Numbered from the stretch's first letter, positions 11,289 to 27,373 are shown. The stretch is 50,484 bases of DNA from Opitutaceae bacterium (GCA_016794725.1 JAEUGZ010000564.1:1-50484); one strand, 5' to 3'. Program-made: numbers and translations. The notes: generated by a model not told the origin, from the sequence alone.

Positions 11289-11849
11289 ATGTCGCTCGAC
11301 TCGGCTCTCACCCACACGATCCAGACGCTCCAATCGCTGAACGCGATTCGATCGGAAATTCACCAGGCGTCCGAATTGATCCGAAGCACCCTGCAGGCAG
11401 GGGGCAAACTGCTGATTTGCGGAAATGGAGGCAGCGCCGCCGAAGCCCAGCACTTCTCCACCGAACTGGTCGGACGCTATTTCAAGAATCGTCGCTCCCT
11501 GCCTGCGGTCGCCCTCTCAGCCGATGGCTCGTTGCTCACCTGCATCGGCAATGACTATGGCTTTGACGCGGCCTTCTCGCGGCAGATCGAGGGCCTCGCG
11601 CGGCCCGGTGATGTCGTCGTCGTGTTCACTTCCAGCGGCAACTCCTCCAATATTCTGGCCGCACTCCACGAAGCCCGCCGGCAAGGGCTCTCCAGCATTG
11701 CGTTCCTGGGACGGGGTGGCGGCAAGGCCAAGGGCATTGCGACGGTCGACCTGATTGTCCCGGGTGACTCCGGCCGCTCCGCCCAGGAGGCCCATCTTTT
11801 TCTCATCCACCACTTCTGCGACATCATTGACTCCGACTGTACTCCGTGA
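11289..11849 (+). CDS. gmhA: D-sedoheptulose-7-phosphate isomerase (SIS domain)
   Basis: GGKLLICGNGGSAAEAQHFSTELVGRY, ALSADGSLLTCIGNDYGFD, SSGNSSNIL and QEAHLFLIHHFCD match GmhA. Confidence 0.8.
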   Translation: MSLDSALTHTIQTLQSLNAIRSEIHQASELIRSTLQAGGKLLICGNGGSAAEAQHFSTELVGRYFKNRRSLPAVALSADGSLLTCIGNDYGFDAAFSRQIEGLARPGDVVVVFTSSGNSSNILAALHEARRQGLSSIAFLGRGGGKAKGIATVDLIVPGDSGRSAQEAHLFLIHHFCDIIDSDCTP

Positions 11850-11914
11850 ACGGTCGGCAACGTCCCCACCCGCCCGTGTTCGATGACCTGCCGCAGCCTG
11901 TGGAGGGCCCCGCC

Positions 11915-12628
11915 ATGTCCCGAACCCCACACCGCCGTCTCTCGGCCGACGAACGCAAACAGGCAATTCTGGAAGCAGGCCTGCCCCTTTTCGCCCACCA
12001 GGGACTGCGTGAGCTCTCCACCCGCGAACTGGCGAAGTCTGCCGGTGTATCCGAAGCACTGTTGTTCAAGTATTTTCCCTCCCGTCCGGTTCTCTACGAA
12101 GAAATTTATCGGTTCTGCGCCCGCCGGCTGCCGCTGGAGGCCATCAACTTCGAGACCCTCAAACCGACCACGGCAAATCTGGTGTGCCTGGTCTATCTCA
12201 CCTGCCGGGTGGTGATGATCGCGAACGCCCTCGAAGTGAAGGCCGTCATGCGCATGATGGGTGACAGCCTGCTCGATGACGGCGCGTTCGCCCGCCTGCT
12301 GCTGGGCAACAATGTGATTACGGCCTTTCGCGAGCGCGTGGTGGCCTGCATTGAGGCGGGTATCAAGGCCGGACATATCACCGCCGACGGCCCGCCTCCG
12401 GCACTCCGATTCTGGTTTGTCCGCAACGCTGCGACCCAGGTGTACTTTCATCGCCTGCCGCAACCACCGGTGGTGCCCTATGACGACGATCCCCTCGAAG
12501 TTGTCCGCCAAGCCACTTACTTTGGACTGCGGGGCATTGGACTCAAGGAATCGCAAATCTCAAAACACGCCAGCCGGGAACGATTGCTCGCCTGGGAGTG
12601 TGAGGACGGCTTCCGGCTCGTCCCCTAG
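11915..12628 (+). CDS. TetR/AcrR-family transcriptional regulator
   Basis: N-terminal HTH: RKQAILEAGLPLFAHQGLRELSTRELAKSAGVSEALLFKYFPSR. An alternative GTG at 11846 overlaps the gmhA stop (GTGA). Confidence 0.8.
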   Translation: MSRTPHRRLSADERKQAILEAGLPLFAHQGLRELSTRELAKSAGVSEALLFKYFPSRPVLYEEIYRFCARRLPLEAINFETLKPTTANLVCLVYLTCRVVMIANALEVKAVMRMMGDSLLDDGAFARLLLGNNVITAFRERVVACIEAGIKAGHITADGPPPALRFWFVRNAATQVYFHRLPQPPVVPYDDDPLEVVRQATYFGLRGIGLKESQISKHASRERLLAWECEDGFRLVP

Positions 12629-12640
12629 TTGGCGCGCATG

Positions 12641-12676
12641 AAAAAGGGGCACGTCGGCCGCGGCCAACCTGCCCCT
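12641..12676 (-). terminator. Rho-independent terminator closing the receptor/hydrolase operon
   Basis: On the minus strand a long GC hairpin (aggggca..ggccgcggcc..tgcccct) is followed by UUUUU (the complement of aaaaa at 12641-12645). It lies 30 nt after the stop at 12706. Confidence 0.55.
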
Positions 12677-12705
12677 CGTACTTGGAGGTGGATCGTCGCC
12701 GTGGT

Positions 12706-14142
12706 TTACTTGAACCAACGAACCACGCTGTAGGTGGCGGCCGCCAGCTGTTTGGGCAGCTCAACGTGGCCGTAGTGGGTCATAAGCGGATCCCATACCA
12801 TGAGCCGGACCTTGGCGTTCGGGTTCTTCTTTCGGTACTCATTCGCGAAAAACACCTCCACGGCCTTCATCGGGTCCTCCGGCACCCAATGGTTGCGGTC
12901 ATAATGACCCACCGTCCAGACCATCTGCTCGTATCCATCCATCCGGGTGTAATGGGTCGAGAACAGGTCAGCACTCACCTCCTCCATGTTCACTCCCCAT
13001 GGATTGCCGGACTTCGCGAGCAGGGTTTCGATGGAAACCTCGATCCAGCCCTTGAGCGAACTGTCGCCCCCGTGCTCAATGCTCTGGATCTGCTGCTTGA
13101 ACTGGGCCCGGCGACGTCCCTCTGCCTTGATCCACTTTTCGGCGATCTGGTACGTCGAATCGCCCGGCTCATACAGCGGATTGAGAAACCGGCTGTAGCC
13201 TCGCGCATAACCGGCCGCGTCCCGACGGGAAAGCTTGTGCAGCGGGGTTCGCTCCCGGGGCGTCGCCGGGGCGGAGGTACTGCCGTAGGAGGGACGCCGG
13301 CCTGCATCCTCGCTCGAGGAGACGCCCTCGCGCGCCTCGCGCACCTGATCGAGCCGGGCCGGTCCACCACTGCCCCAGCCCAGGTAGCGACCCTTGGTGC
13401 GTGCCCGAAGCTCGGGGTCGTTGTTCGCCAGCATCGCCATTTCTCCGGAGGTCGAGTGCCCGATCAACAGCAGGTCGCCCGTCGTGTTCTTCATCAGGAG
13501 CTGCTTCAGCCCCTTCATCACGTTCACATTGGTCAGGAGGCAGTTTCTCACTTCATATTCCTCCAACGACAGCGTCTTGTCCAACAAGTAGGCCGGTTGT
13601 CGCAGCTCGCTCTTGATCGGTTCATCCCAGCCGCCGTACTTGAAATTCCCGGGAATCGTGACGATCATCACATTGAGTTTCTGGGCAAGGAATTGCCCCC
13701 AGCCAGGACGGTTCTTCAGGTCGACATAGAACTCATACACATTCGCCGCCCCGCCGTTCATGATGACGAGCCAGGGGTACTTCTTTGCCTCGGGATCGTT
13801 GCTGGTCAGCCGCAGACCGGTGATGTCCCAATCCAAATTGTAGTGGCGGTACCGTTCCACGATCCAGTCGGCTTTGTAACCAAGCACCGAGGCCGGGACT
13901 TTGTCGAGCAGACGCGGATCAAAGGCGCCGCCGGGTGCCGCCAGGGCAAGATCGGTCACAGTCTTGCCACCATCCGGCAGATCCCAGCCAAGGGACATGA
14001 AAGAGGGGGTGTCGAGCGAAACATAAACCGCTTTTGGATCATCGAGCAGCGTCCAGATCTTCTTTTCCACTTCGTCACCCGCAAAGGCGTGAAGGGCAAA
14101 GAGACTGGCGGCGGCGCAGAGGGAGGAGAATTGAGCCTTCAT
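12706..14142 (-). CDS. Secreted alpha/beta-hydrolase-like Ser-hydrolase, paralog 1 (uncharacterised family)
   Basis: Signal peptide MKAQFSSLCAAASLFALHAFA, oxyanion-like VIMNGGAAN and nucleophile elbow LLLIGHSTSGE (Ser codon 13453-13455). It aligns end to end with the next two genes. Confidence 0.75.
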   Translation of the reverse strand: MKAQFSSLCAAASLFALHAFAGDEVEKKIWTLLDDPKAVYVSLDTPSFMSLGWDLPDGGKTVTDLALAAPGGAFDPRLLDKVPASVLGYKADWIVERYRHYNLDWDITGLRLTSNDPEAKKYPWLVIMNGGAANVYEFYVDLKNRPGWGQFLAQKLNVMIVTIPGNFKYGGWDEPIKSELRQPAYLLDKTLSLEEYEVRNCLLTNVNVMKGLKQLLMKNTTGDLLLIGHSTSGEMAMLANNDPELRARTKGRYLGWGSGGPARLDQVREAREGVSSSEDAGRRPSYGSTSAPATPRERTPLHKLSRRDAAGYARGYSRFLNPLYEPGDSTYQIAEKWIKAEGRRRAQFKQQIQSIEHGGDSSLKGWIEVSIETLLAKSGNPWGVNMEEVSADLFSTHYTRMDGYEQMVWTVGHYDRNHWVPEDPMKAVEVFFANEYRKKNPNAKVRLMVWDPLMTHYGHVELPKQLAAATYSVVRWFK

Positions 14143-14164
14143 AGGAGGGAGTCTGAAAGACGGG

Positions 14165-15613
14165 TTAGCTGTCCTGTTTCATCATCCAGTCGACGACGTG
14201 AATGAATGCGCCGGCAAGCTGCTCGGGCAGCTCAACGTGGGCGTAGTGGGTGACGTTGAGATCCCAGCCAATGACGCGGATCTTGGCCTTCGGATTGCGC
14301 AGGCGATATTCGGCGGCAATGCCGACATCACCGCCCTGCGCTGGATACAGTGCATTCCAGTGACCATCGAGTTTGCCCACGCACCAGACCATTGTACGGT
14401 ACCCGGTCGCCGGCGCATAACTCGTGGAATGGAGATCCTTCTGAACTTCCTCGAGATTCACTCCCCACGGATTTCCCGTCTTTGCCAGCGCCTTTTCAAT
14501 CGCCACCTCGATCTCACCTTTCATCGCAAAGTTGTCACTGTGCTCGAGGTCCTGCAGCGGTTGCTTGAAATTGGCGCGACGGCGTCCTTCGACCTGCAAC
14601 CACCGGGTCGCAATGTCCATGACCGACATGCCGGGCTCATAGAGTGGATTCAGCCACCGGCTGTAGACGCGACTATAGACCTGGGGCGTCCGACGGGCGA
14701 GATCGTTCAACCAGAAGTCTCCCGCCTTTTTCCAGTTGCGGGCACCACCCTCTTCGCCGCCACCACCGGTCAGACTCGGCGCGGCCTTGTACAACGGATC
14801 CGCTGCTTTCTTCGCGGCAATGACCGCTTTCACCCGCACGGGACCACCCGTTCCCCAACCGAGAAAGCGTCCCTTGAGTCGGGCTGTGAGCTCGGGATCA
14901 CGTTGCGCAAGACCGGGCAGCTCGCCGCCGGTCGAGTGACCGACGATGACCAGGTCGCCGGTGGTGTTCTTCACGATCAGCTGTTTCAACCCCTGATAGA
15001 TCACCTCGAAGGTGAAGACCGAGTTGTAAACCAGGACCTCGTCGGGATTCAGGTCACGATCGAGCAGAAACGCCGGGTCACGCTGATCGATCGGCTTTTC
15101 CCATCCACCATACTTGAAGTTTCCCGGTATGGAGACGATCAGCACGTTGAGTTTCTGGGCCAGGAACTGGCCCCAGCCGGGACGGTTCTTCAGGTCGATG
15201 TAGAACTCATAGATATTTGCCGCACCACCGTTCAGAATCACGACCCAGGGTTTGTCCTTCGCACCGGGATCCAGCGAGGTGAGTCGCAGGCCGCCGATAT
15301 CCCAGGGGAGATTGTAGCGAGTGAACCGCTCCACGATCCAATCGGCTTTGTAGCCGAGGGACTTTGGATCGAGTTTAGCAACGTCGCGGGGATCAAAGGC
15401 CCCTCCAGGTGCCTTGAGCGCCAGCTCGGTGACTTGTTTGCCACCATCCGGCAGCGCGACCTTCAAGGAGCGAAAGTCGGCTTCCGACAGCATGGTGAAC
15501 GGCTTCTCCTGGTCGAGGAGAGCGTGGATCGTGGCGCCCGCATCGGCCCGCAGTCCAGTGGCGCAGGCGAGCGAGACGGTGCACAGGGCAGCGGAAAAGA
15601 GTGTGTGTTTCAT
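14165..15613 (-). CDS. Secreted alpha/beta-hydrolase-like Ser-hydrolase, paralog 2
   Basis: Start taken at MKHTLFSAALCTVSLACA (ATG 15613), because the ORF-track extension to 15841 would overlap paralog 3. VILNGGAAN and VIVGHSTGGE (Ser codon 14933-14935). Confidence 0.75.
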   Translation of the reverse strand: MKHTLFSAALCTVSLACATGLRADAGATIHALLDQEKPFTMLSEADFRSLKVALPDGGKQVTELALKAPGGAFDPRDVAKLDPKSLGYKADWIVERFTRYNLPWDIGGLRLTSLDPGAKDKPWVVILNGGAANIYEFYIDLKNRPGWGQFLAQKLNVLIVSIPGNFKYGGWEKPIDQRDPAFLLDRDLNPDEVLVYNSVFTFEVIYQGLKQLIVKNTTGDLVIVGHSTGGELPGLAQRDPELTARLKGRFLGWGTGGPVRVKAVIAAKKAADPLYKAAPSLTGGGGEEGGARNWKKAGDFWLNDLARRTPQVYSRVYSRWLNPLYEPGMSVMDIATRWLQVEGRRRANFKQPLQDLEHSDNFAMKGEIEVAIEKALAKTGNPWGVNLEEVQKDLHSTSYAPATGYRTMVWCVGKLDGHWNALYPAQGGDVGIAAEYRLRNPKAKIRVIGWDLNVTHYAHVELPEQLAGAFIHVVDWMMKQDS

Positions 15614-19791: not shown

Positions 19792-20216
19792 ATTGGGTGT
19801 GAAGGTCGATGCAGTTCGTTTGGTTCCAGTGTCAGCGCCAACAAGCACGGCACGTGCCCATTCATGATTTGAATACACAACCAGGCATGAATGTTTTTCC
19901 AGGCACCGGCCGCAACCGCCCCGGGGTTGCAGTTACAAATCAGATCCGTAGTTGATTGTTCACTTCACCGTTAATGTGTGACCACTGACCGACCCGACGC
20001 GATTCAACCGACGTCCGCGAACGCCTCGGCACACCTCCGGTTCGCGGCGTCCGTCGGATCCACCCTGCGGCAACCAGTCGGTGCTACACTTTCAACTACC
20101 GACGCTGGTAGACAGAGGGGCACGCCGGCGCCCGCACCGGGCCGGCGGCCCGGCGCGTCTCGTCCAGGGTCCGCTCCACCCCAATCCGGGACCGGAATGT
20201 CCCGGCGAGGGCGGAC

Positions 20217-22481
20217 TCACGCTGAGGGTGTTGGTTTGAGCTGGTTCAGTATCGATTCGGGAGTGAAGGGAATGCGACGGACTCGCACGCCCAGCGCGTC
20301 GTAGATTGCATTGCCGATCGAGGCGGCGATCGGCCGTGTCGCCGGCTCGCCCGCACCGGTGGAGGGTCGGTCGGGGCGGTTGTTGACGATCTCGATGTCA
20401 ATCGCCTGGGGAACCTCGGTCATGTCAAGAATGGGATAGCTCAGCCAGTCGGTGCTGGTCACCGCGGTGGAGGTGAAGGCCACCGCCTCGTGGAGCGCCC
20501 GGCTCAGCCCTTGGATCAGATTCGCCTCAATGGTCCCCTGCAGGCTGGCCGGATTGATGACGAAACCGCAGTCGTGGGCCACCACGAAGCGCTCCACCCG
20601 AACCCGGCCGGTGGTTGTGTCCACCGCCACCTCCGTCACGATCGCCACGGTCGTACCGTTGCGCGGCGCATAGGCAATACCGCGCCCGCGCCGGGTCGCA
20701 GCCGATCCCGGCGCGGGATTGGGCGAGGGACGTGACTCCCAGCCTGCCCGGCTGGCCGCCGCGTGAACGATGTCGCGGTCACGCTGATCCGACAGGTATT
20801 GGATGCGAAACTGCACGGGATCCATCCCGGCGGCGGCGGCCAGCTCATCCACAAAACACTCGCTGGCAAAACACGTCGCCATGCCATCGGGGTCGCGAAG
20901 GTGAGCCGTGCGCAGTCCGGTCGGAAGGGCGTGATCCCAGGGCAGGAGGTGGGACGTCAGTCGTTTCGCCGGAAACCGGTAGGTCTCGGTCGAAAACTGG
21001 AACCGGTCGGTGCTTTTGGCCTTCCATCCCCCGAGCATCTGCCCGAGAAGCGAATCCCCCGGCTCCTCGGTGCTGGAGGCGCGCAGACGACCTGAAAAGC
21101 CCCGCGCTTCATAGTCAAAGGCAGTCACCGCTCCCGTTGTACTCAGCCCACCGCGCATCGTCACCACCAAGGGAGGCCCCTTCGGATCCCACGCCGTTCC
21201 CTCCTCCCGGCTGTACTGCACCCGCACCGGCCGCCGCACGCGCGCCGAAAGGAACGCGGCATCCATGGCGGCATCGTCGGCGTCATTCATGCCATAGGAG
21301 CCGGGACCCGCCATCCACACCACCCGGACACGGCCAGGCTTCAGTCCGAGGAGTTTCGCGACCGCCCGACGCAGTGAATAGGGTTTCTGGCCTCCCATCC
21401 AGACTGTGGCGGAGTCCTCCTTCACCTCGGCAACCCCACAGCCGGGTCCCATGCAGGCATGGGACTGAAAAGGAAACTCGTACCGCGCCTGAAGGACCCG
21501 GGCCGACGCCTGCAAGCCTTCATCCACCGAGCCCACCGTATCCGCCGACTCCGACACACCCGGATTGCCCGCGGCCAGGTGGGTGTAGAGCTCACCGTAG
21601 GAGCCGGGGAACCGGGGGGCGGGCGTGCTCCAGCGCGGGACAAGGCTCCGCGCCGCCCGCACTGCCTGGAACTCCTGCTCGCAAACCACCGCGACGAAGT
21701 TTCCCTGTGTCACCACCTCAATCAATCCAGGTGACGAAAAGTCCGGCGGCACGCCGAGCAGCGTCGCCCCCGCCTGGGGCGGTCGAACGACGCGTGCATG
21801 CACCATCGCAGGGAGCACGAAGTCGACCAGGTACTCATAGCTGCCGTGCACCTTGGGGGGAATGTCGATGCGCGGTACCGGCTTGCCGACGTAGCGGTAG
21901 TGTTCCGGCGACTTCGTCTCAACCCCCTTGGGCAGGGCGAGTTCCAGCTTCCGGCCCTTCACCAGCTGGGCATAGGTTACGCCGACGCCAGGACGCAGCG
22001 TGGTGGTCACCACGCCCGCGTTCACGGCGAGTGCCTCCACACCCACGCCCAGCTGCTCCGCCGCCAGACCCAGTAGGTGGTGATGGGCGGCTGCGGCGGC
22101 CTTGCGCAGAGCCGACCCGCCCTCGACAATACCGTTGCTCGATCCGGTCCCGCGTTGATCCACCGTCGAGGCCGTGTCGCCCATGACCAGGACAACGCAT
22201 TCCATGTCGACCCTGAGTTCGTCCGCCACGATCTGCACAAACGCAGTACTGACACCCATGCCGGCTTCTATCTTCCCCACCGCCGCCACCACGCGTCCGT
22301 CATCGAGCAGCGCGAGCCAGGAATCGACGCGGTCAGCCGGAATGCTCTCCTTCCAGTCAGGGGTCACGGGAGCCTGCGCACGGAGCGACGGCGGCGCGGA
22401 GAAGAGCACGACCAGACCGCCGGCCACTCCAAGAAAGTCGCGGCGCGTCCAAAAACCGCCGGCCGGGGACGACGGGCTCAT
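20217..22481 (-). CDS. Molybdopterin-binding subunit of an IorB/aldehyde-oxidoreductase-like xanthine dehydrogenase-family enzyme, TAT-exported
   Basis: Twin-arginine signal MSPSSPAGGFWTRRDFLGVAGGLVVLFSAPPSLRA. The size (about 754 aa) and blocks (GKIEAGMGVSTA, GGQKPY, AGPGSYGMND, GAGEPA) fit the family. The ATG overlaps the upstream stop as ATGA (22478-22481). Confidence 0.85.
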   Translation of the reverse strand: MSPSSPAGGFWTRRDFLGVAGGLVVLFSAPPSLRAQAPVTPDWKESIPADRVDSWLALLDDGRVVAAVGKIEAGMGVSTAFVQIVADELRVDMECVVLVMGDTASTVDQRGTGSSNGIVEGGSALRKAAAAAHHHLLGLAAEQLGVGVEALAVNAGVVTTTLRPGVGVTYAQLVKGRKLELALPKGVETKSPEHYRYVGKPVPRIDIPPKVHGSYEYLVDFVLPAMVHARVVRPPQAGATLLGVPPDFSSPGLIEVVTQGNFVAVVCEQEFQAVRAARSLVPRWSTPAPRFPGSYGELYTHLAAGNPGVSESADTVGSVDEGLQASARVLQARYEFPFQSHACMGPGCGVAEVKEDSATVWMGGQKPYSLRRAVAKLLGLKPGRVRVVWMAGPGSYGMNDADDAAMDAAFLSARVRRPVRVQYSREEGTAWDPKGPPLVVTMRGGLSTTGAVTAFDYEARGFSGRLRASSTEEPGDSLLGQMLGGWKAKSTDRFQFSTETYRFPAKRLTSHLLPWDHALPTGLRTAHLRDPDGMATCFASECFVDELAAAAGMDPVQFRIQYLSDQRDRDIVHAAASRAGWESRPSPNPAPGSAATRRGRGIAYAPRNGTTVAIVTEVAVDTTTGRVRVERFVVAHDCGFVINPASLQGTIEANLIQGLSRALHEAVAFTSTAVTSTDWLSYPILDMTEVPQAIDIEIVNNRPDRPSTGAGEPATRPIAASIGNAIYDALGVRVRRIPFTPESILNQLKPTPSA

Positions 22482-22978
22482 TTCCTCACCTTCCGCCAGA
22501 GCACCGCAGCGCGTTTGACCGCGCGCAGAATGCTGACATGCGCACCACAACGGCACTTGAGGTCGGAGAGCGCCCCTCGGATGCGGGCGTCATCCGCCTC
22601 CGGATCGGCCTCAAGCAGCGCCACGGCCGTCATGATCCACCCATTGAGGCAATAGCCGCACTGCGCCGCCTGCTCGTCAATGAACGCCTGCTGCACCACG
22701 TGCCGGGCCTCCAGGGCCTGGGTCCGCGGTCCCCGTGAGGCCAGACCCTCCAGAGTCGTCACCTGAGTCGCGGCCGCGCCCTCGGCGGGCACGCTGCACG
22801 ACCGGGCCGCCACCCCGTTGATCAGGACGGTGCAGGCTCCGCACTGGCCGAGCCCGCAGCCAAAACGGGGGCCCTTGATTCCGAGTTGATTCCTGAGAAC
22901 GTAGAGCAGCGGCGTATCCGATTCGATCGGTACGGAGGTCGGTTTACCATTCAACTCAAAGGTGATGGTTGGTGTCAT
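22478..22978 (-). CDS. (2Fe-2S)-binding small subunit (IorA-like) of the molybdenum hydroxylase
   Basis: GCGLGQCGACTVLINGVAARSC and QCGYCLNG...CRCGAH are the two [2Fe-2S] motifs. It has no signal peptide of its own, so it may hitch-hike on the large subunit. Confidence 0.9.
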   Translation of the reverse strand: MTPTITFELNGKPTSVPIESDTPLLYVLRNQLGIKGPRFGCGLGQCGACTVLINGVAARSCSVPAEGAAATQVTTLEGLASRGPRTQALEARHVVQQAFIDEQAAQCGYCLNGWIMTAVALLEADPEADDARIRGALSDLKCRCGAHVSILRAVKRAAVLWRKVRK

Positions 22979-22981
22979 GGT

Positions 22982-25900
22982 TCAGGCGACCGCCGAGGGC
23001 AGCACGGGGGAATCCACCGGCTGGGGAGCCGCCACCTGCGTGCGGCGGGCACAGACGAGGAGGTACATGGAGGGAACCACATAGAGCGTGAGCACGCTGC
23101 CGACGATCAGTCCCCCGATCACCGCCAGACCCATCGAGACCCGGCTTTCGCTGCCCGCACCCAGGGCAAGCGCGATCGGCACCACACCGAGCACCGTGGC
23201 CACCGTGGTCATCAGAATCGGCCGCAGCCGCGTGTCCGCCGCCTGCAGCACCGCCTCGCGCGCCGCCACACCATCGCGAACCCGCTGCAGGGTGAACTCA
23301 ACGAGGAGGATGCCATTCTTGGTGATCAACCCCACCAGCATGATGATCCCAATCTGGCTAAAAATGTTCAGGGTCTGGTCAAAAAGTGCGAGCGTGCCGA
23401 GCGCGCCGACCAACGCGAGCGGGACGGTCAGCATGATCACAAACGGAGCACGCCAGCTTTCAAACTGGGCCGCCATCACCAGGTAAACAAACACCAGCGC
23501 GAGCGCAAAACCGACCAGCAGTCCTTTCTGACTCTCCGCATAGTCCGCCGCCGCGCCGGTCAACGCCGTATCCAGTTCCTTCGGCAGGTGATCCCGGGCC
23601 AGGGCCCGCATCGCGACAATTCCGTCCGCGATGGTTACCCCCGGGGCCAGGCGGGCCGATACGGTGGCCGCAATCTGCCGACCATAGCGATATCGCTGCG
23701 GCGGGGCCACCCGTTCCTTGACTGATATGAGGTTGTCCAGCGACACCAGTTTCCCCGGCGCCACCCGCACCGCCAGCCGGTTGATCGTGCTCGCGTCCAG
23801 CCTCATGTCGGCCGACAGCTGCTGCACCACCTCGTACTGGCGCCCGTTCCGGGTGTAGTAACCCACGCGCTGTCCGCTCAGCGCCGATTGCAGGGTCTGC
23901 GCCACGGTGACGGCCGAGACTCCCAGTGCCTGCAGTCGTTCCCGATCCAGCTCCACCTGCAACTCAGGTCGGGTGAACTTGAGGTCGACCTCACTCGAGG
24001 CAAACGAGGGAGCATCCTCCACCGCATTGAGAAACTTCGGCAACCCATCGATCAGGTCCTTCATATCGGGAGCGCCGACGACGAATTGAACCGAATCACC
24101 GCTCCGTCGGTCGCCAATGCTGGTCTCCTGGGAAATGCTCACCCGCGCCCCGGGGTGGTTGCGCACCAGGCGGGTGAGGCGCGCCGCGATCTCAGCCTGC
24201 GACACACCTCGGGACGCTTTCGACGACAATTGAAGCTCGATCACCCCGGTGTTGGCCACCCCGGTTCCACTCCGCGCCCCCGAGGCCGGAACCTGAAGCG
24301 TCATCAGAACCGCCTCCGGCACCGCAGCATCCACCGCAGCCGCCAGGTCGTTCATGTAGGAGAGCATGTAGTCGTAGGAGGCGCCCTCCGGACCCGTCGC
24401 CCGGACCGCCACCCGGCTCCGATCCTCAAGCGGCGACAGTTCGGAAGGCAGGCGGCCATGCAGCCACACCACTGCCGCAACGCAGCCGGCCAGCACGCCC
24501 AGGACCAGCACGCGCCATCCCAGCACCCGCTCCAGCGAGGATCGGTATCCTTTCCTGAGTGACGCGAGAAAGCGCTCCATCCCACCCAACCACCCCACCC
24601 TGCCGCCATGAATCCGAGCGCCCATCATGGGCGTCAGGGTAAGCGCCACAAACGCGGACAACCCCACCGCCGACGCAATGACCACGCCAAACTCACGAAA
24701 GAGCCGTCCCGTCAGTCCCTCCAGAAATACGATGGGGGAAAACACCACCACCAGCGCCAGCGTAGTTGCGATGACCGCCACATACACCTCTTTGGTTCCT
24801 TCAATGCCGGCATCGAGCGGCGACATGCCTTCCTCCTGCCGCCGGTGGATGTTTTCCACCACCACGATGGCATCGTCGACCACGAGTCCCACCGCCAGCA
24901 CCAGGCCAAGGAGGGTGAGGATGTTCAGGGAAAACCCCGCCGCCTGCATCACCAGGAACGTTCCGACCAGCGAAATCGGGATCGCCACCGCCGGGATGAG
25001 GGTGACGCGCCAGGAACCAAGAAATAGAAAGAGGACCACCACCACGAGGAGGAGCGCCAGACCGATCGTCTCGGCCAACTCGACCACCGCCTGGCGGACA
25101 AACTGGGTTGTATCCGTGGCGATTTCCACGGTGACATCGGCCGGCAGTGAAGCGCGGATGGCATCGAGACGGCGGTAGGTTTCGTCAGCGATCGTGATCT
25201 GATTCGCGCCCGGTTGCGGACGGACCGCGAGCCCGACCAGCGGGACTCCGCGCAAGGTGTAGGAGAGGCGTTCGTTCAGCGGGGCATACTCAGCCTGTCC
25301 GATCTCTTCAAACGGGATGCGCTGCTCCGCCTTGGTCAGCACTGCCATGCGATTGAACTCCTCCGGCGTGCGCAGCCGCCCTTGCGCCTGCAAGGTCAGC
25401 TCCGAGGCGCGATTTTCCACGCGTCCACCGGGTAGCTCCACGCTCTCGCGCTGCACCGCTTCCTTGACGTCAAGCGCGGTCAGTCCATGCGCCGCCATAC
25501 GATCGGGATCCAGCCAGAGTTTGATCGACTGGCGCTTCTCACCGAGGATGTCGACCCCGCCCACCTCGGGAATCGTCTGCAGGCGATCCTTAACCCGATC
25601 CGCCAGTTCGGTCAGTTCCATGAGGTCACGGCGGTCGCTCCGCACCACGAGGGTGAGCACTGGCGAGGAATCGGCGTCGGACTTGGAGATCGAGGGCGGA
25701 TCGACATCCCGGGGCAACAGTCGAATCGCGCGGCTAATCTGGTCCCGGACGTCATTGGCCGCCGCTTCCAGATCCGTCCCCAGTTCAAACTCGACCCGGA
25801 TGCGGCTCGCACCATCGCGGCTGACCGACGTCAGGGAACGGATGCCGGAGACCGTGTTCACCGCCTCCTCCAGGGGAACGGTGATCTGCGATTCAATGAC

Positions 25901-26071
25901 CTCGGCATTGGCCCCGGGGTAGTTCGCCACCACGGAGATCACCGGGGGATCGACCGCGGGATACTCCCTGACTCCGAGCCGGGAGAGCGCGATGGCTCCG
26001 GTGAGAAAGAGCACTCCGGAGAGCACCACCGTGAACACCGGACGCCTGACGCACAGCTCGTAGAGTCGCAT
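22982..26071 (-). CDS. RND efflux transporter permease (AcrB/HAE family)
   Basis: 1029 aa with 12-TM architecture. N-terminus CVRRPVFTVVLSGVLFLTGAIAL, LVVDDAIVVVENI and a duplicated half with GLITKNGILLVEF. Confidence 0.92.
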   Translation of the reverse strand: MRLYELCVRRPVFTVVLSGVLFLTGAIALSRLGVREYPAVDPPVISVVANYPGANAEVIESQITVPLEEAVNTVSGIRSLTSVSRDGASRIRVEFELGTDLEAAANDVRDQISRAIRLLPRDVDPPSISKSDADSSPVLTLVVRSDRRDLMELTELADRVKDRLQTIPEVGGVDILGEKRQSIKLWLDPDRMAAHGLTALDVKEAVQRESVELPGGRVENRASELTLQAQGRLRTPEEFNRMAVLTKAEQRIPFEEIGQAEYAPLNERLSYTLRGVPLVGLAVRPQPGANQITIADETYRRLDAIRASLPADVTVEIATDTTQFVRQAVVELAETIGLALLLVVVVLFLFLGSWRVTLIPAVAIPISLVGTFLVMQAAGFSLNILTLLGLVLAVGLVVDDAIVVVENIHRRQEEGMSPLDAGIEGTKEVYVAVIATTLALVVVFSPIVFLEGLTGRLFREFGVVIASAVGLSAFVALTLTPMMGARIHGGRVGWLGGMERFLASLRKGYRSSLERVLGWRVLVLGVLAGCVAAVVWLHGRLPSELSPLEDRSRVAVRATGPEGASYDYMLSYMNDLAAAVDAAVPEAVLMTLQVPASGARSGTGVANTGVIELQLSSKASRGVSQAEIAARLTRLVRNHPGARVSISQETSIGDRRSGDSVQFVVGAPDMKDLIDGLPKFLNAVEDAPSFASSEVDLKFTRPELQVELDRERLQALGVSAVTVAQTLQSALSGQRVGYYTRNGRQYEVVQQLSADMRLDASTINRLAVRVAPGKLVSLDNLISVKERVAPPQRYRYGRQIAATVSARLAPGVTIADGIVAMRALARDHLPKELDTALTGAAADYAESQKGLLVGFALALVFVYLVMAAQFESWRAPFVIMLTVPLALVGALGTLALFDQTLNIFSQIGIIMLVGLITKNGILLVEFTLQRVRDGVAAREAVLQAADTRLRPILMTTVATVLGVVPIALALGAGSESRVSMGLAVIGGLIVGSVLTLYVVPSMYLLVCARRTQVAAPQPVDSPVLPSAVA

Positions 26072-26073
26072 GG

Positions 26074-27153
26074 TCAGTTTTTCAGAACCTTGACCGGCGC
26101 CCCAGGTCGCACCTGGTGCGCTCCGGCCACGATCACCTGATCGCCCGAGCGGATTCCCTCAAGAATCTCAATGTCCGCCTCGCGGCGCGTTCCCACCCGA
26201 ACTCGCCGACGTTCCGCAACCCCTTCCTTGACCACCATGAGATCGGCCCCGTCGGAACCCATGACCAGCGAGGGGGCCGGCACCATCAGGGCGTCGAGGG
26301 TGCTCCGGGCGATCCAGACCACCCGCGCCAGCGATCCGGTTCGCAACGCGAGGTCGGGATTTCTCCCCCGGGCCCGCACGAGGAGGGTGCGGGTGCCCTC
26401 ATCCACTTTCGGCTCAATCGCAAAGACCTCGGCCTCATATTCGCGGGCGTCCCCTGCGACAGAAAATCGCACCGGCTGGCCGACCTGTATCCGATGTGCA
26501 TGACGCTCAGCCAGGAAGAAATCCACATTCACGGGATCGAGCGACTCGATGGTCGCAAACCGCGTCGAGGATGACACCACCGCGCCCACGCTGATGTTGC
26601 GCAATCCAATGATGCCATCAAACGGTGCCACCAGCGTCGTCTTGGCGAGTTGGGCTCTGACCACCTCCTCCTCCGCCTTCTGCACCGCAGCCTCGGTCAC
26701 CGCTCCATCGAAGTCCTGGAGATTGGCAAAACCGCCCTCACGCAGGGGACGGAGCCGCTCGACGCGCAGGTCGGCCAGTCGTCGTCGCTGCACAATACGC
26801 TCCAGTCCGGCGCGCAGCTCCACGTCGTCCAGCTTGACGAGGATTGCTCCCTTGCGAACGGGCTGGCCCTCCTGAAATCCGATTGTCAGGACCCGCCCGG
26901 CGATCTCCGTCTGAATCTCCACACGTTCACTGGCACGCACCGTGCCCGCAGCCACAATCCGCTCCTCCAGCATCTTTGGCTCCACCTTCACCACCCGCAC
27001 CGCAAGAGGCTCCCGCTCCCGGCCCCGGGAGGATGATCCCGAGCCCTCGCGGGACACTTTCGGCCGCGTCCCATGCCACCACGCACCGGCCCCAAATCCG
27101 CCGGAAAGGAGGAGCAATGCGCCAATCAGAGGCAGGAATCGAAATTTGAACAT
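26074..27153 (-). CDS. RND efflux periplasmic adaptor (membrane fusion protein, HlyD family)
   Basis: N-terminal anchor MFKFRFLPLIGALLLLSGG, a lipoyl/hairpin region and APFDGIIG. The stop lies 2 nt before the RND start. Confidence 0.85.
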   Translation of the reverse strand: MFKFRFLPLIGALLLLSGGFGAGAWWHGTRPKVSREGSGSSSRGREREPLAVRVVKVEPKMLEERIVAAGTVRASERVEIQTEIAGRVLTIGFQEGQPVRKGAILVKLDDVELRAGLERIVQRRRLADLRVERLRPLREGGFANLQDFDGAVTEAAVQKAEEEVVRAQLAKTTLVAPFDGIIGLRNISVGAVVSSSTRFATIESLDPVNVDFFLAERHAHRIQVGQPVRFSVAGDAREYEAEVFAIEPKVDEGTRTLLVRARGRNPDLALRTGSLARVVWIARSTLDALMVPAPSLVMGSDGADLMVVKEGVAERRRVRVGTRREADIEILEGIRSGDQVIVAGAHQVRPGAPVKVLKN

Positions 27154-27181
27154 GACGAGTCCGCACACGGGATGCAGACAG

Positions 27182-27203
27182 TAAGTGAGTTATCACTCAC
27201 TTA
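27182..27203. promoter_or_regulatory. 22-bp near-perfect palindrome, a candidate operator in the divergent promoter region
   Basis: TAAGTGAGT-TATC-ACTCACTTA is self-complementary at 20 of 22 positions. It lies 29 nt upstream of the adaptor ATG (27153), between the divergent pump operon and the DsbA-like gene. Confidence 0.35.
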
Positions 27204-27373
27204 GCTTAAACCATGCTACCGATGAGATTCCTCAATGAAACTTTGTCATCCTCAACCATGCCATCGGCGTGCAAAACGGCCGGCCGGTGCACTGGCGGAA
27301 AATACAGCCAGCTGCACCCTCGCGTCCGCCTGTCCAATTGACCCGCCGACACGGGGGCCGCAGGTTTCAACCC

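Follow-up and report, generated by a model that had tools for sequence, protein, structure and literature searches.

The 50,484-nt stretch JAEUGZ010000564.1 of Opitutaceae bacterium (GCA_016794725.1, a metagenome-assembled genome in 641 contigs), called the window here and used at its full length for all coordinates, contains a closely packed set of genes encoding a predicted resistance-nodulation-division (RND) efflux pump and a putative molybdenum hydroxylase of the IorAB type. Judged from gene order in independent assemblies, this linkage is real and conserved but narrow in distribution, and it is dispensable. Each part appears to be of a known kind (an HAE1-type RND pump, an enzyme of the IorAB/membrane aldehyde dehydrogenase type, and a TonB-dependent receptor with secreted hydrolases located downstream), and it is apparently their combination that is new in the literature searched.

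A four-gene unit of pump and oxidoreductase genes

An ORF scan of the minus strand from 27153 to 20217 identifies, in order of transcription, genes for the periplasmic adaptor, the RND permease, the small subunit IorA and the large subunit IorB (Table 1). The initial annotation of this region had described four genes on one strand, the first two junctions being gaps of 2 and 3 nt and the third an ATGA overlap, and both the ORFs and the sequence confirm it: the adaptor stop codon (TGA) is followed by 2 nt (cc) and the RND ATG, the RND stop codon (TGA) by 3 nt (acc) and the iorA ATG, and iorA and iorB share a 4-nt ATGA overlap with GGTGAGGAA directly before it. An alternative GTG start for the adaptor lies at 27168. 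A unique gene order had been named as grounds for abandoning the pairing, and the synteny survey proposed at the same time finds the order elsewhere too, in a total of nine assemblies that have the four genes or the parts of them covered by the contig (the window, L031/G001, L144, L145, L150, L034/G184, L146, L147 and L227/G511; L and G numbers are our own identifiers), representing three of the four lineages of this RND orthologue group. The gaps between the RND gene and iorA in the nine are 3, 3, 6, 4, 3, 35, 13, 13 and 13 nt, the 4-nt ATGA-type overlap of iorA and iorB is present in at least eight of them, and the adaptor/RND junction, covered by seven of the assemblies, ranges between a 4-nt overlap and a 6-nt gap. 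Synteny is kept at IorB identities of 58-96% and RND identities of 64-98%. A chimeric contig joining an efflux operon to an unrelated oxidoreductase might be suspected from the fragmentation of the genome and from a G+C step near 20 kb, but this is refuted by the occurrence of the same four-gene order in independent genome and metagenome assemblies, including the single-contig 4.2-Mb genome G511, and its probability is negligible.

No promoter-like site was found by consensus scan between 19500 and 28200, and the terminator-like sites in the same interval number four versus 5.2 expected from shuffled sequences, so no recognizable signal parts the pump from the oxidoreductase; an independent promoter or terminator at this point had been put forward as evidence against a common transcript. 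One of the terminator-like sites (22475-22456) was considered and dismissed: it is inside the first iorB codons, and such sites are fewer in total than the shuffled sequences give on average. No Rfam family reaches its gathering score in the whole window, with neither a Moco (molybdenum cofactor) riboswitch nor any other leader among the matches. The stem-loop after iorB is a weak candidate for the operon end; the fold of 20140-20222 has a free energy of -44.1 kcal/mol with a z-score of only -1.08, its sequence is kept in part in G001 and L144, and the 338-nt gap downstream of iorB contains no minus-strand ORF of at least 80 aa. The adaptor gene is preceded by an inverted repeat of the type ATGAxA-N5-TxTCAT, which occurs as a single match in the window, L031, L144, L145, L034, L146, L227 and L226, roughly 45-100 nt from the adaptor start in every lineage; with up to one mismatch allowed, the pattern matches only once in the whole window. 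Because the junctions are tight across assemblies and the palindrome upstream of the adaptor is conserved, co-transcription from one regulated promoter seems well supported, and adaptor, RND, iorA and iorB very likely constitute one transcription unit. The co-transcription originally proposed from the window is thus supported by sequence in all nine four-gene assemblies, wherever the contig covers the junctions.

Table 1. Features of the pump-iorAB region and its flanks. Coordinates are those of the window unless a locus is named.
Feature	Coordinates	Strand	Remarks
RND periplasmic adaptor (membrane fusion protein), 359 aa	26074..27153	-	HlyD_D23 (Pfam) 1.1e-24
RND permease, HAE1/multidrug type, 1029 aa	22982..26071	-	Pfam ACR_tran
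IorA-type small subunit, two [2Fe-2S] sites, 166 aa	22478..22978	-	Fer2_2 4e-22, Fer2 1.2e-7
IorB-type molybdopterin-binding large subunit, 754 aa	20217..22481	-	Pfam MoCoBD_2 and MoCoBD_1
Twin-arginine motif WTRRDFLGVAG, IorB signal peptide	22419..22451	-	From the translation
G+C-rich stem-loop, no U tract	20167..20215	-	Directly 3' of iorB stop; possible operon end, weak
TonB-dependent outer-membrane receptor, about 900-925 aa	17101..19878	-	Pfam Plug 1.6e-9
Secreted alpha/beta-hydrolase-like paralogue 1, 469 aa	15628..17037	-	No Pfam or NCBIfam match
Secreted alpha/beta-hydrolase-like paralogue 2, about 482-496 aa	14165..15655 (start possibly 15613)	-	Weak Abhydrolase_6, 8e-4
Secreted alpha/beta-hydrolase-like paralogue 3, 478 aa	12706..14142	-	67% identical to paralogue 1
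Inverted repeat, ATGAxA-N5-TxTCAT type, ATGAAACTTTGTCAT	27235..27249		Divergent promoter region upstream of adaptor gene; candidate operator
DsbA-like thioredoxin-fold gene, 223 aa	27374..28045	+	Pfam DSBA 1.6e-9; divergent from operon
Secreted protein, ~230 aa	L034 4396-5097, L226 2412-3266, L228 6616-7329, L097 13033-13722	-	Island neighbour

Distribution of the pump-iorAB arrangement

Among 60 relatives sampled from the genus, family and order, an IorB orthologue is found only in G001, a member of the same genus (96% identity), and the next match is at 35%. A scan with one genome per species yields 76 loci with IorB relatives, 70 of them with both subunits: two verrucomicrobial (L034 and L097), two actinobacterial and 66 proteobacterial, mostly in Burkholderiales and Usitatibacter. 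By tblastn, an RND gene lies near iorAB only at L031/L032 (G001), L034 and L097, all of them in Verrucomicrobia. The order at L034 is identical to that of the window (adaptor 44%, RND 67%, IorA 59% and IorB 62% identity), and L097 has an RND gene of 34% identity on the opposite strand. An RND gene is absent from all 41 proteobacterial iorAB loci whose sequence extends 4.2 kb or more upstream of iorA, far enough for a pump. Neighbours of iorAB vary over the 70 loci, with EutA, sigma factors and regulators among them, and a cytochrome c gene is the nearest neighbour at two loci. With such variable surroundings, no RND gene at the 41 loci and cytochrome c nearest at only two, iorAB reads as a mobile two-gene cassette that usually moves with neither a pump nor a cytochrome subunit.

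Viewed from the pump, sampling 150 Opitutaceae genomes gives 47-54% identity for the next-closest RNDs, encoded at 25 loci of 22 genomes; the adaptor-RND pair is kept at each of these loci, and none has iorAB within 1.5 kb downstream. In the metagenome collection (79 RND loci) the five RNDs with at least 64% identity all have iorA-iorB directly downstream (L144 93%, L145 89%, L150 87%, L146 67% and L147 64%), and none of the 74 loci at 48% or below does. The pairing therefore does not amount to a general module: it is restricted to a single RND orthologue group of Opitutaceae and is absent at every other iorAB locus examined.

Two other neighbours of iorAB are of note. At 12 betaproteobacterial loci (L038, L044, L045, L050, L066, L068, L070, L071, L081, L085, L090 and L094) a SEC-C-motif protein of ~180-210 aa, with the motif at its N-terminus, is encoded on the same strand directly upstream of iorA, and a TctC-family binding protein adjoins iorAB in 14 loci. 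Either protein could give a hint of what this iorAB orthologue group acts on.

The IorAB enzyme and its export

The two cysteine motifs of IorA, C-x4-C-x2-C-x11-C and C-x2-C-x31-C-x-C, are intact in all nine verrucomicrobial copies. Among solved structures the closest to IorB (E 1.3e-40, residues 12-749) is 8gy3_C, from the large subunit of a membrane-bound aldehyde dehydrogenase, and a GAGEP motif near the IorB C-terminus, whose Glu we take to be the catalytic base, is present in 69 of 72 orthologues and in all six verrucomicrobial IorB proteins checked. No match to FAD_binding_5 or CO_deh_flav_C, as expected of an FAD medium subunit, was found among the genes of 12.7-28 kb. The predicted product is an intact two-subunit enzyme of the xanthine-oxidase family, with Moco and two [2Fe-2S] clusters and no FAD subunit. 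IorB reaches no NCBIfam equivalog cut-off, the best being XdhA (169 versus 780 bits).

The N-terminus of IorB, MSPSSPAGGFWTRRDFLGVAGGLVVLFSAPPSLRAQAP (also written as MSPSSPAGGFWTRRDFLGVAGG..LRAQAP), has the features of a twin-arginine translocation (Tat) signal, WTRRDFLGVAGGLVVLFSAPPSLRA-QAP, with a twin-arginine motif, a hydrophobic stretch and then an AxA-like site. An RRxF/L-type motif is at the same place in all 77 orthologues with a recovered N-terminus, and the genome encodes one TatC, together with an XdhC/CoxI-type maturation factor and MoeA; the clear twin-arginine signal first read on the Mo subunit thus appears to be a family-wide trait in a genome equipped with TatC. IorA has no signal peptide of its own. 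Folded partners that lack a signal can be exported by the Tat system alongside a signal-bearing one (hitch-hiking), and with the signal on IorB and none on IorA, IorAB should be exported to the periplasm as a folded heterodimer with IorA as passenger.

The initial annotation had also remarked on the lack of a cytochrome c subunit. There is indeed no cytochrome c gene in 12.7-28 kb, nor in the other two arrangements of the island described below (B and C), but this is no oddity, being normal for this group of iorAB loci. The genome has 38 matches to cytochrome c domains elsewhere.

The RND pump

The adaptor, encoded immediately upstream of the permease, matches NCBIfam TIGR01730 at 227 bits (cut-off 94.9). 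The permease matches ACR_tran (PF00873) over nearly the full profile (E 6.1e-270; residues 4-1006 on profile positions 2-1020 of 1021) and is below the NCBIfam subfamily cut-offs (RND_permease_2 NF033617, 1006.8 versus 1250 bits; TIGR00915, 679.6 versus 940 bits), so that its assignment is to the family in general and not to a subfamily or substrate class. Its closest solved relatives are the multidrug pumps 7wlv, MexB, AcrB and MdtB. As had been pointed out, an outer-membrane factor is lacking: Pfam scans detect no OEP-domain gene in 12.7-28 kb. This is ordinary rather than anomalous, as none of the related adaptor-RND loci carries an outer-membrane factor gene and 35 OEP-domain matches are present elsewhere in the genome. 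With these and the 38 cytochrome-c-domain matches, both apparently missing partners could be supplied in trans.

A receptor and three hydrolases adjoin the operon

By ending at 20217, the initial annotation left out what is the more constant part of a larger island, a TonB-dependent receptor gene and three hydrolase genes that follow iorB on the same strand. The receptor has weak NCBIfam matches to siderophore receptors, and its orthologues (69-99% identical) are beside the hydrolase triplet in every island examined. The three hydrolase genes are tandem paralogues with mutual identities of 54-67% (paralogue 2 is 54-56% identical to the other two) and signal-like sequences at their N-termini. 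Paralogue 1 has an Atlas score of 0.98 to alpha/beta-hydrolase clusters, and its AF2 model (pLDDT 86) is matched by Foldseek to lipases, esterases, thioesterases and epoxide hydrolases at a modest TMq of 0.34-0.42; across 30 homologues a G-H-S-T-x-G-E motif is invariant and His residues are conserved. On these three grounds we read the paralogues as alpha/beta hydrolases. The family has neither a Pfam nor an NCBIfam model but is common in metagenomes, with 731 matches at E<=1e-10 among 8000 candidates scored, and named homologues of the hydrolases are found in the cultured Lacunisphaera limnophila. Receptor and triplet together are rare, occurring in seven of 401 sampled family genomes, the window's own included, and always as a triplet, and in none of 300 other genomes of the order or 400 other genomes of the phylum sample. 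A siderophore function, suggested by the weak receptor similarity, was considered, since periplasmic esterases are known in siderophore piracy, and was set aside: the hydrolases match no esterase family model and nothing in the island is iron-related.

Wherever a verrucomicrobial iorAB locus has enough flanking sequence, the receptor/hydrolase cluster is adjacent, in one of three arrangements. In arrangement A receptor and hydrolases are downstream on the same strand (the window and G001; in L144 this is seen up to the receptor gene, inside which the retrieved sequence stops); in B (G184 = G486, L146 and G511) the two gene sets are convergent. In C, represented by G185, the receptor, the three hydrolases, a different adaptor, an MdtB/C-like RND' (34%) and a 229-aa secreted protein are encoded in one direction, and this cluster converges on iorB-iorA, which follow a gene of the purine-nucleoside-permease family. 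From this comparison, receptor, hydrolases, pump and iorAB form what is best described as a patchy accessory island with the receptor and three hydrolases as its core. The G+C content is 0.59-0.605 across 14-20 kb (receptor and hydrolases) versus 0.645-0.668 across 20-26 kb (iorAB and pump), a step that fits different origins of the two halves.

The purine-nucleoside-permease-family (PF06516) gene of G185 (L097 8283-9452, plus strand) directly precedes iorA and is a single case; it may hint at a purine-like heterocyclic substrate. A secreted protein of ~230 aa and no known family (43-75% identical; Table 1) accompanies arrangements B and C and G470. We rejected it as part of the island in the window's genome, where its homologue (45%) is on another contig among unrelated genes.

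A proposed route for import, hydrolysis, oxidation and efflux

We give an even chance to the reading that the island is an accessory periplasmic system which would import, hydrolyse, oxidise and expel, its components presumably acting on a shared substrate. The receptor would import a specific, probably ester-linked, compound, which the three hydrolases would cleave in the periplasm. IorAB would then oxidise a reactive or toxic fragment, either from aldehyde to acid or by hydroxylation of an N-heterocycle, handing the electrons to one of the numerous c-type cytochromes whose genes are located elsewhere, and the RND pump, with an outer-membrane factor also encoded elsewhere, would expel the fragment or its oxidised product. 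The oxidise-and-expel coupling suggested in the initial annotation may hold. The best single argument that efflux has a functional place at the island is the non-orthologous pump found there in G185. A stronger version, in which importer, hydrolases and IorAB make up a self-contained and previously undescribed processing line, IorAB turning a toxic leaving group into the pump's actual substrate so that oxidation and efflux are mechanistically coupled, seems to us doubtful; if true, this would be the first RND operon equipped with a periplasmic enzyme of its own for preparing the substrate.

Several observations weigh against this proposal. iorAB is dispensable, having been lost or never present in G578, G561 and G470. 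In G578, which represents the fourth lineage, an orthologous pump (65-68% identical to all others) converges on the hydrolases across a gap of about 250-300 nt that contains no iorAB remnant at E<=1e-3, and no IorB orthologue is found at E<=1e-60 in G578, G470 or G561 (99, 100 and 91% complete). In G511 (L227, about 12470-14660) iorB passes into another frame near residue 575-589, either as a pseudogene with a real frameshift or through a sequencing or assembly error. The oxidoreductase genes also diverge faster than the pump in the sequences compared, L145 being 89% identical to the window in RND and 79% in the adaptor, and 69% and 67% in IorA and IorB. The oxidoreductase is an optional addition to pump and island and no obligatory partner of either. 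The 338-nt gap of arrangement A indicates that the operon and the receptor/hydrolase genes are probably transcribed as separate units. Adjacency in A and B could go back to one ancestor and have survived a local inversion, and the loci therefore do not count as independent of each other. Finally, the hydrolase model matches only generic alpha/beta hydrolases and IorB is below every NCBIfam equivalog cut-off, so that neither points to a particular compound.

A distinctly unlikely alternative is that IorAB serves the receptor and hydrolases as an energy-yielding periplasmic dehydrogenase for a hydrolysis product, much as membrane-bound aldehyde dehydrogenases supply the respiratory chain, the pump being a merely co-resident source of general protection. 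It would agree with 8gy3_C, the closest solved relative of IorB, being part of a respiratory enzyme, with the position of iorAB beside the receptor and hydrolases in all three arrangements, including C where it is outside the pump operon, and with the many c-type cytochromes available. However, nine of the ten verrucomicrobial iorAB loci are packed in the pump operon and not in the receptor/hydrolase operon, no arrangement encodes a cytochrome c subunit or a quinone-reducing partner, and since the islands of G470 and G578 lack iorAB, the hydrolase pathway does not need it.

Origin of iorAB

In a tree of 69 IorB rows (partial sequences starting after query residue 20 or ending before 700, and G511, were omitted) the seven verrucomicrobial proteins group together in a single clade (SH-aLRT 99) within 58 proteobacterial rows. 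It is nested in the betaproteobacterial part of the tree, and the actinobacterial and gammaproteobacterial rows fall outside. This nesting and the rarity of iorAB in Opitutaceae favour a single acquisition from Betaproteobacteria, the direction of transfer being inferred from a tree rooted by midpoint and outgroup only.

Such an origin raises the possibility, which we regard as somewhat unlikely, of genomic hitch-hiking, in which a betaproteobacterial iorAB landed behind a resident adaptor-RND operon and borrows its promoter, the two acting on unrelated substrates and the order being kept by inertia in the few related lineages concerned. Besides the nested clade, this would account for iorAB being a self-contained mobile pair with diverse neighbours across 70 loci and an RND gene only in Verrucomicrobia, for the single orthologue (G001) among 60 relatives, for the absence or loss of iorAB in three genomes and its frameshift in G511, for the faster evolution of IorB than of RND, and for the G+C step within the island. 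It is less easily reconciled with junctions that stay tight in nine assemblies down to 58% IorB identity, or with cofactor-binding and catalytic motifs that are intact in all complete copies. Nor does inertia alone predict the situation in G185, where iorAB is out of the pump operon yet at the same island beside a different RND. If hitch-hiking is all there is, the locus would still show clearly how a resident operon can capture a cassette gained by horizontal transfer.

Comparison with known systems

As in the tripartite HAE1 RND systems acrAB, mexAB-oprM and mdtABC, an adaptor gene is followed by one for a permease of ~1030 aa with a full-length ACR_tran domain, and in acrAB too the outer-membrane factor is encoded elsewhere. 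Unlike these, the window's operon has two extra genes, for a predicted Tat-exported molybdoenzyme, and no conserved adjacent TetR-type repressor. A TetR gene at 11846-12628 was considered as the operon's regulator and rejected, having no homologue in the fetched parts of other islands.

Over its whole length IorB aligns to the large subunit of the membrane-bound aldehyde dehydrogenase of acetic acid bacteria (8gy3), a subunit that also starts with a twin-arginine motif (SRRNFL), and neither enzyme has an FAD subunit. The similarity is moderate (E 1.3e-40), and unlike 8gy3, which consists of a large Moco, a small [2Fe-2S] and a cytochrome c subunit, the present locus has no cytochrome c subunit. 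The isoquinoline 1-oxidoreductase IorAB of Brevundimonas diminuta has a small subunit with two [2Fe-2S] clusters, a Moco subunit of ~750-780 aa and no FAD subunit; the two-subunit architecture is alike by this general description rather than by sequence comparison, with no NCBIfam equivalog cut-off reached here. PaoABC, the periplasmic aldehyde oxidoreductase of Escherichia coli, has an FAD subunit and carries the Tat signal on its small subunit. PaoC matches IorB at E 8.8e-28 over part of its length, and other structures match at about 1e-27 or more weakly. TonB-dependent receptors and periplasmic hydrolases are combined in uptake loci such as siderophore-esterase and polysaccharide-utilisation loci, and the island resembles these in having an importer gene followed by secreted-hydrolase genes. 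It differs in that its hydrolases belong to a ~470-aa family without a Pfam model and in the linked pump and molybdoenzyme; there is no SusD-like match and no match to esterase PF00756 in the receptor/hydrolase locus.

RND pumps are normally viewed as stand-alone extruders, and a pump operon with a built-in periplasmic redox enzyme would be a natural instance of periplasmic detoxification by 'modify, then expel'. It would also provide a first functional handle on an uncharacterised IorAB/aldehyde-oxidoreductase branch that is widespread in Betaproteobacteria, and on the ~470-aa secreted alpha/beta-hydrolase family and the accessory metabolism of Opitutaceae. The nearest concept is found in Pseudomonas, where a periplasmic Mo enzyme (PaoEFG) is reported to detoxify aldehydes and an RND pump (MexEF-OprN) to answer the same stress (PMC11144800). 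According to that study PaoEFG is the primary periplasmic enzyme oxidising 5-hydroxymethylfurfural (HMF), and MexEF-OprN is induced by aldehydes, the pump having lowered, not raised, tolerance; the two are separate loci, unlike the single operon of the window (PMC11144800). The initial annotation was aware of no described pairing of RND and iorAB genes, and our keyword search of the literature, mostly at abstract level, likewise found no description of an RND-IorAB operon.

The divergent flank of the operon

A DsbA-like gene is transcribed divergently from the operon (Table 1). It is a neighbour only in the window's own lineage, in G001 (96%) and L145 (75%), and not in L034, L144 or L226. The actinobacterial locus L105 likewise has a DSBA-domain gene ahead of iorAB. 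Its product shows no relation to the window's protein (best E 2.5), and we rejected a link between DsbA-like genes and iorAB. In G470 (L228) the hydrolase cluster is still flanked by the palindrome and a divergently transcribed gene, but the pump operon is gone, which looks like a deletion. A second, perfect inverted repeat, TAAGTGAGT-N4-ACTCACTTA, is located at 27182-27203, just upstream of the adaptor start; it is absent from L144 and L145 and is retained in G001 only.

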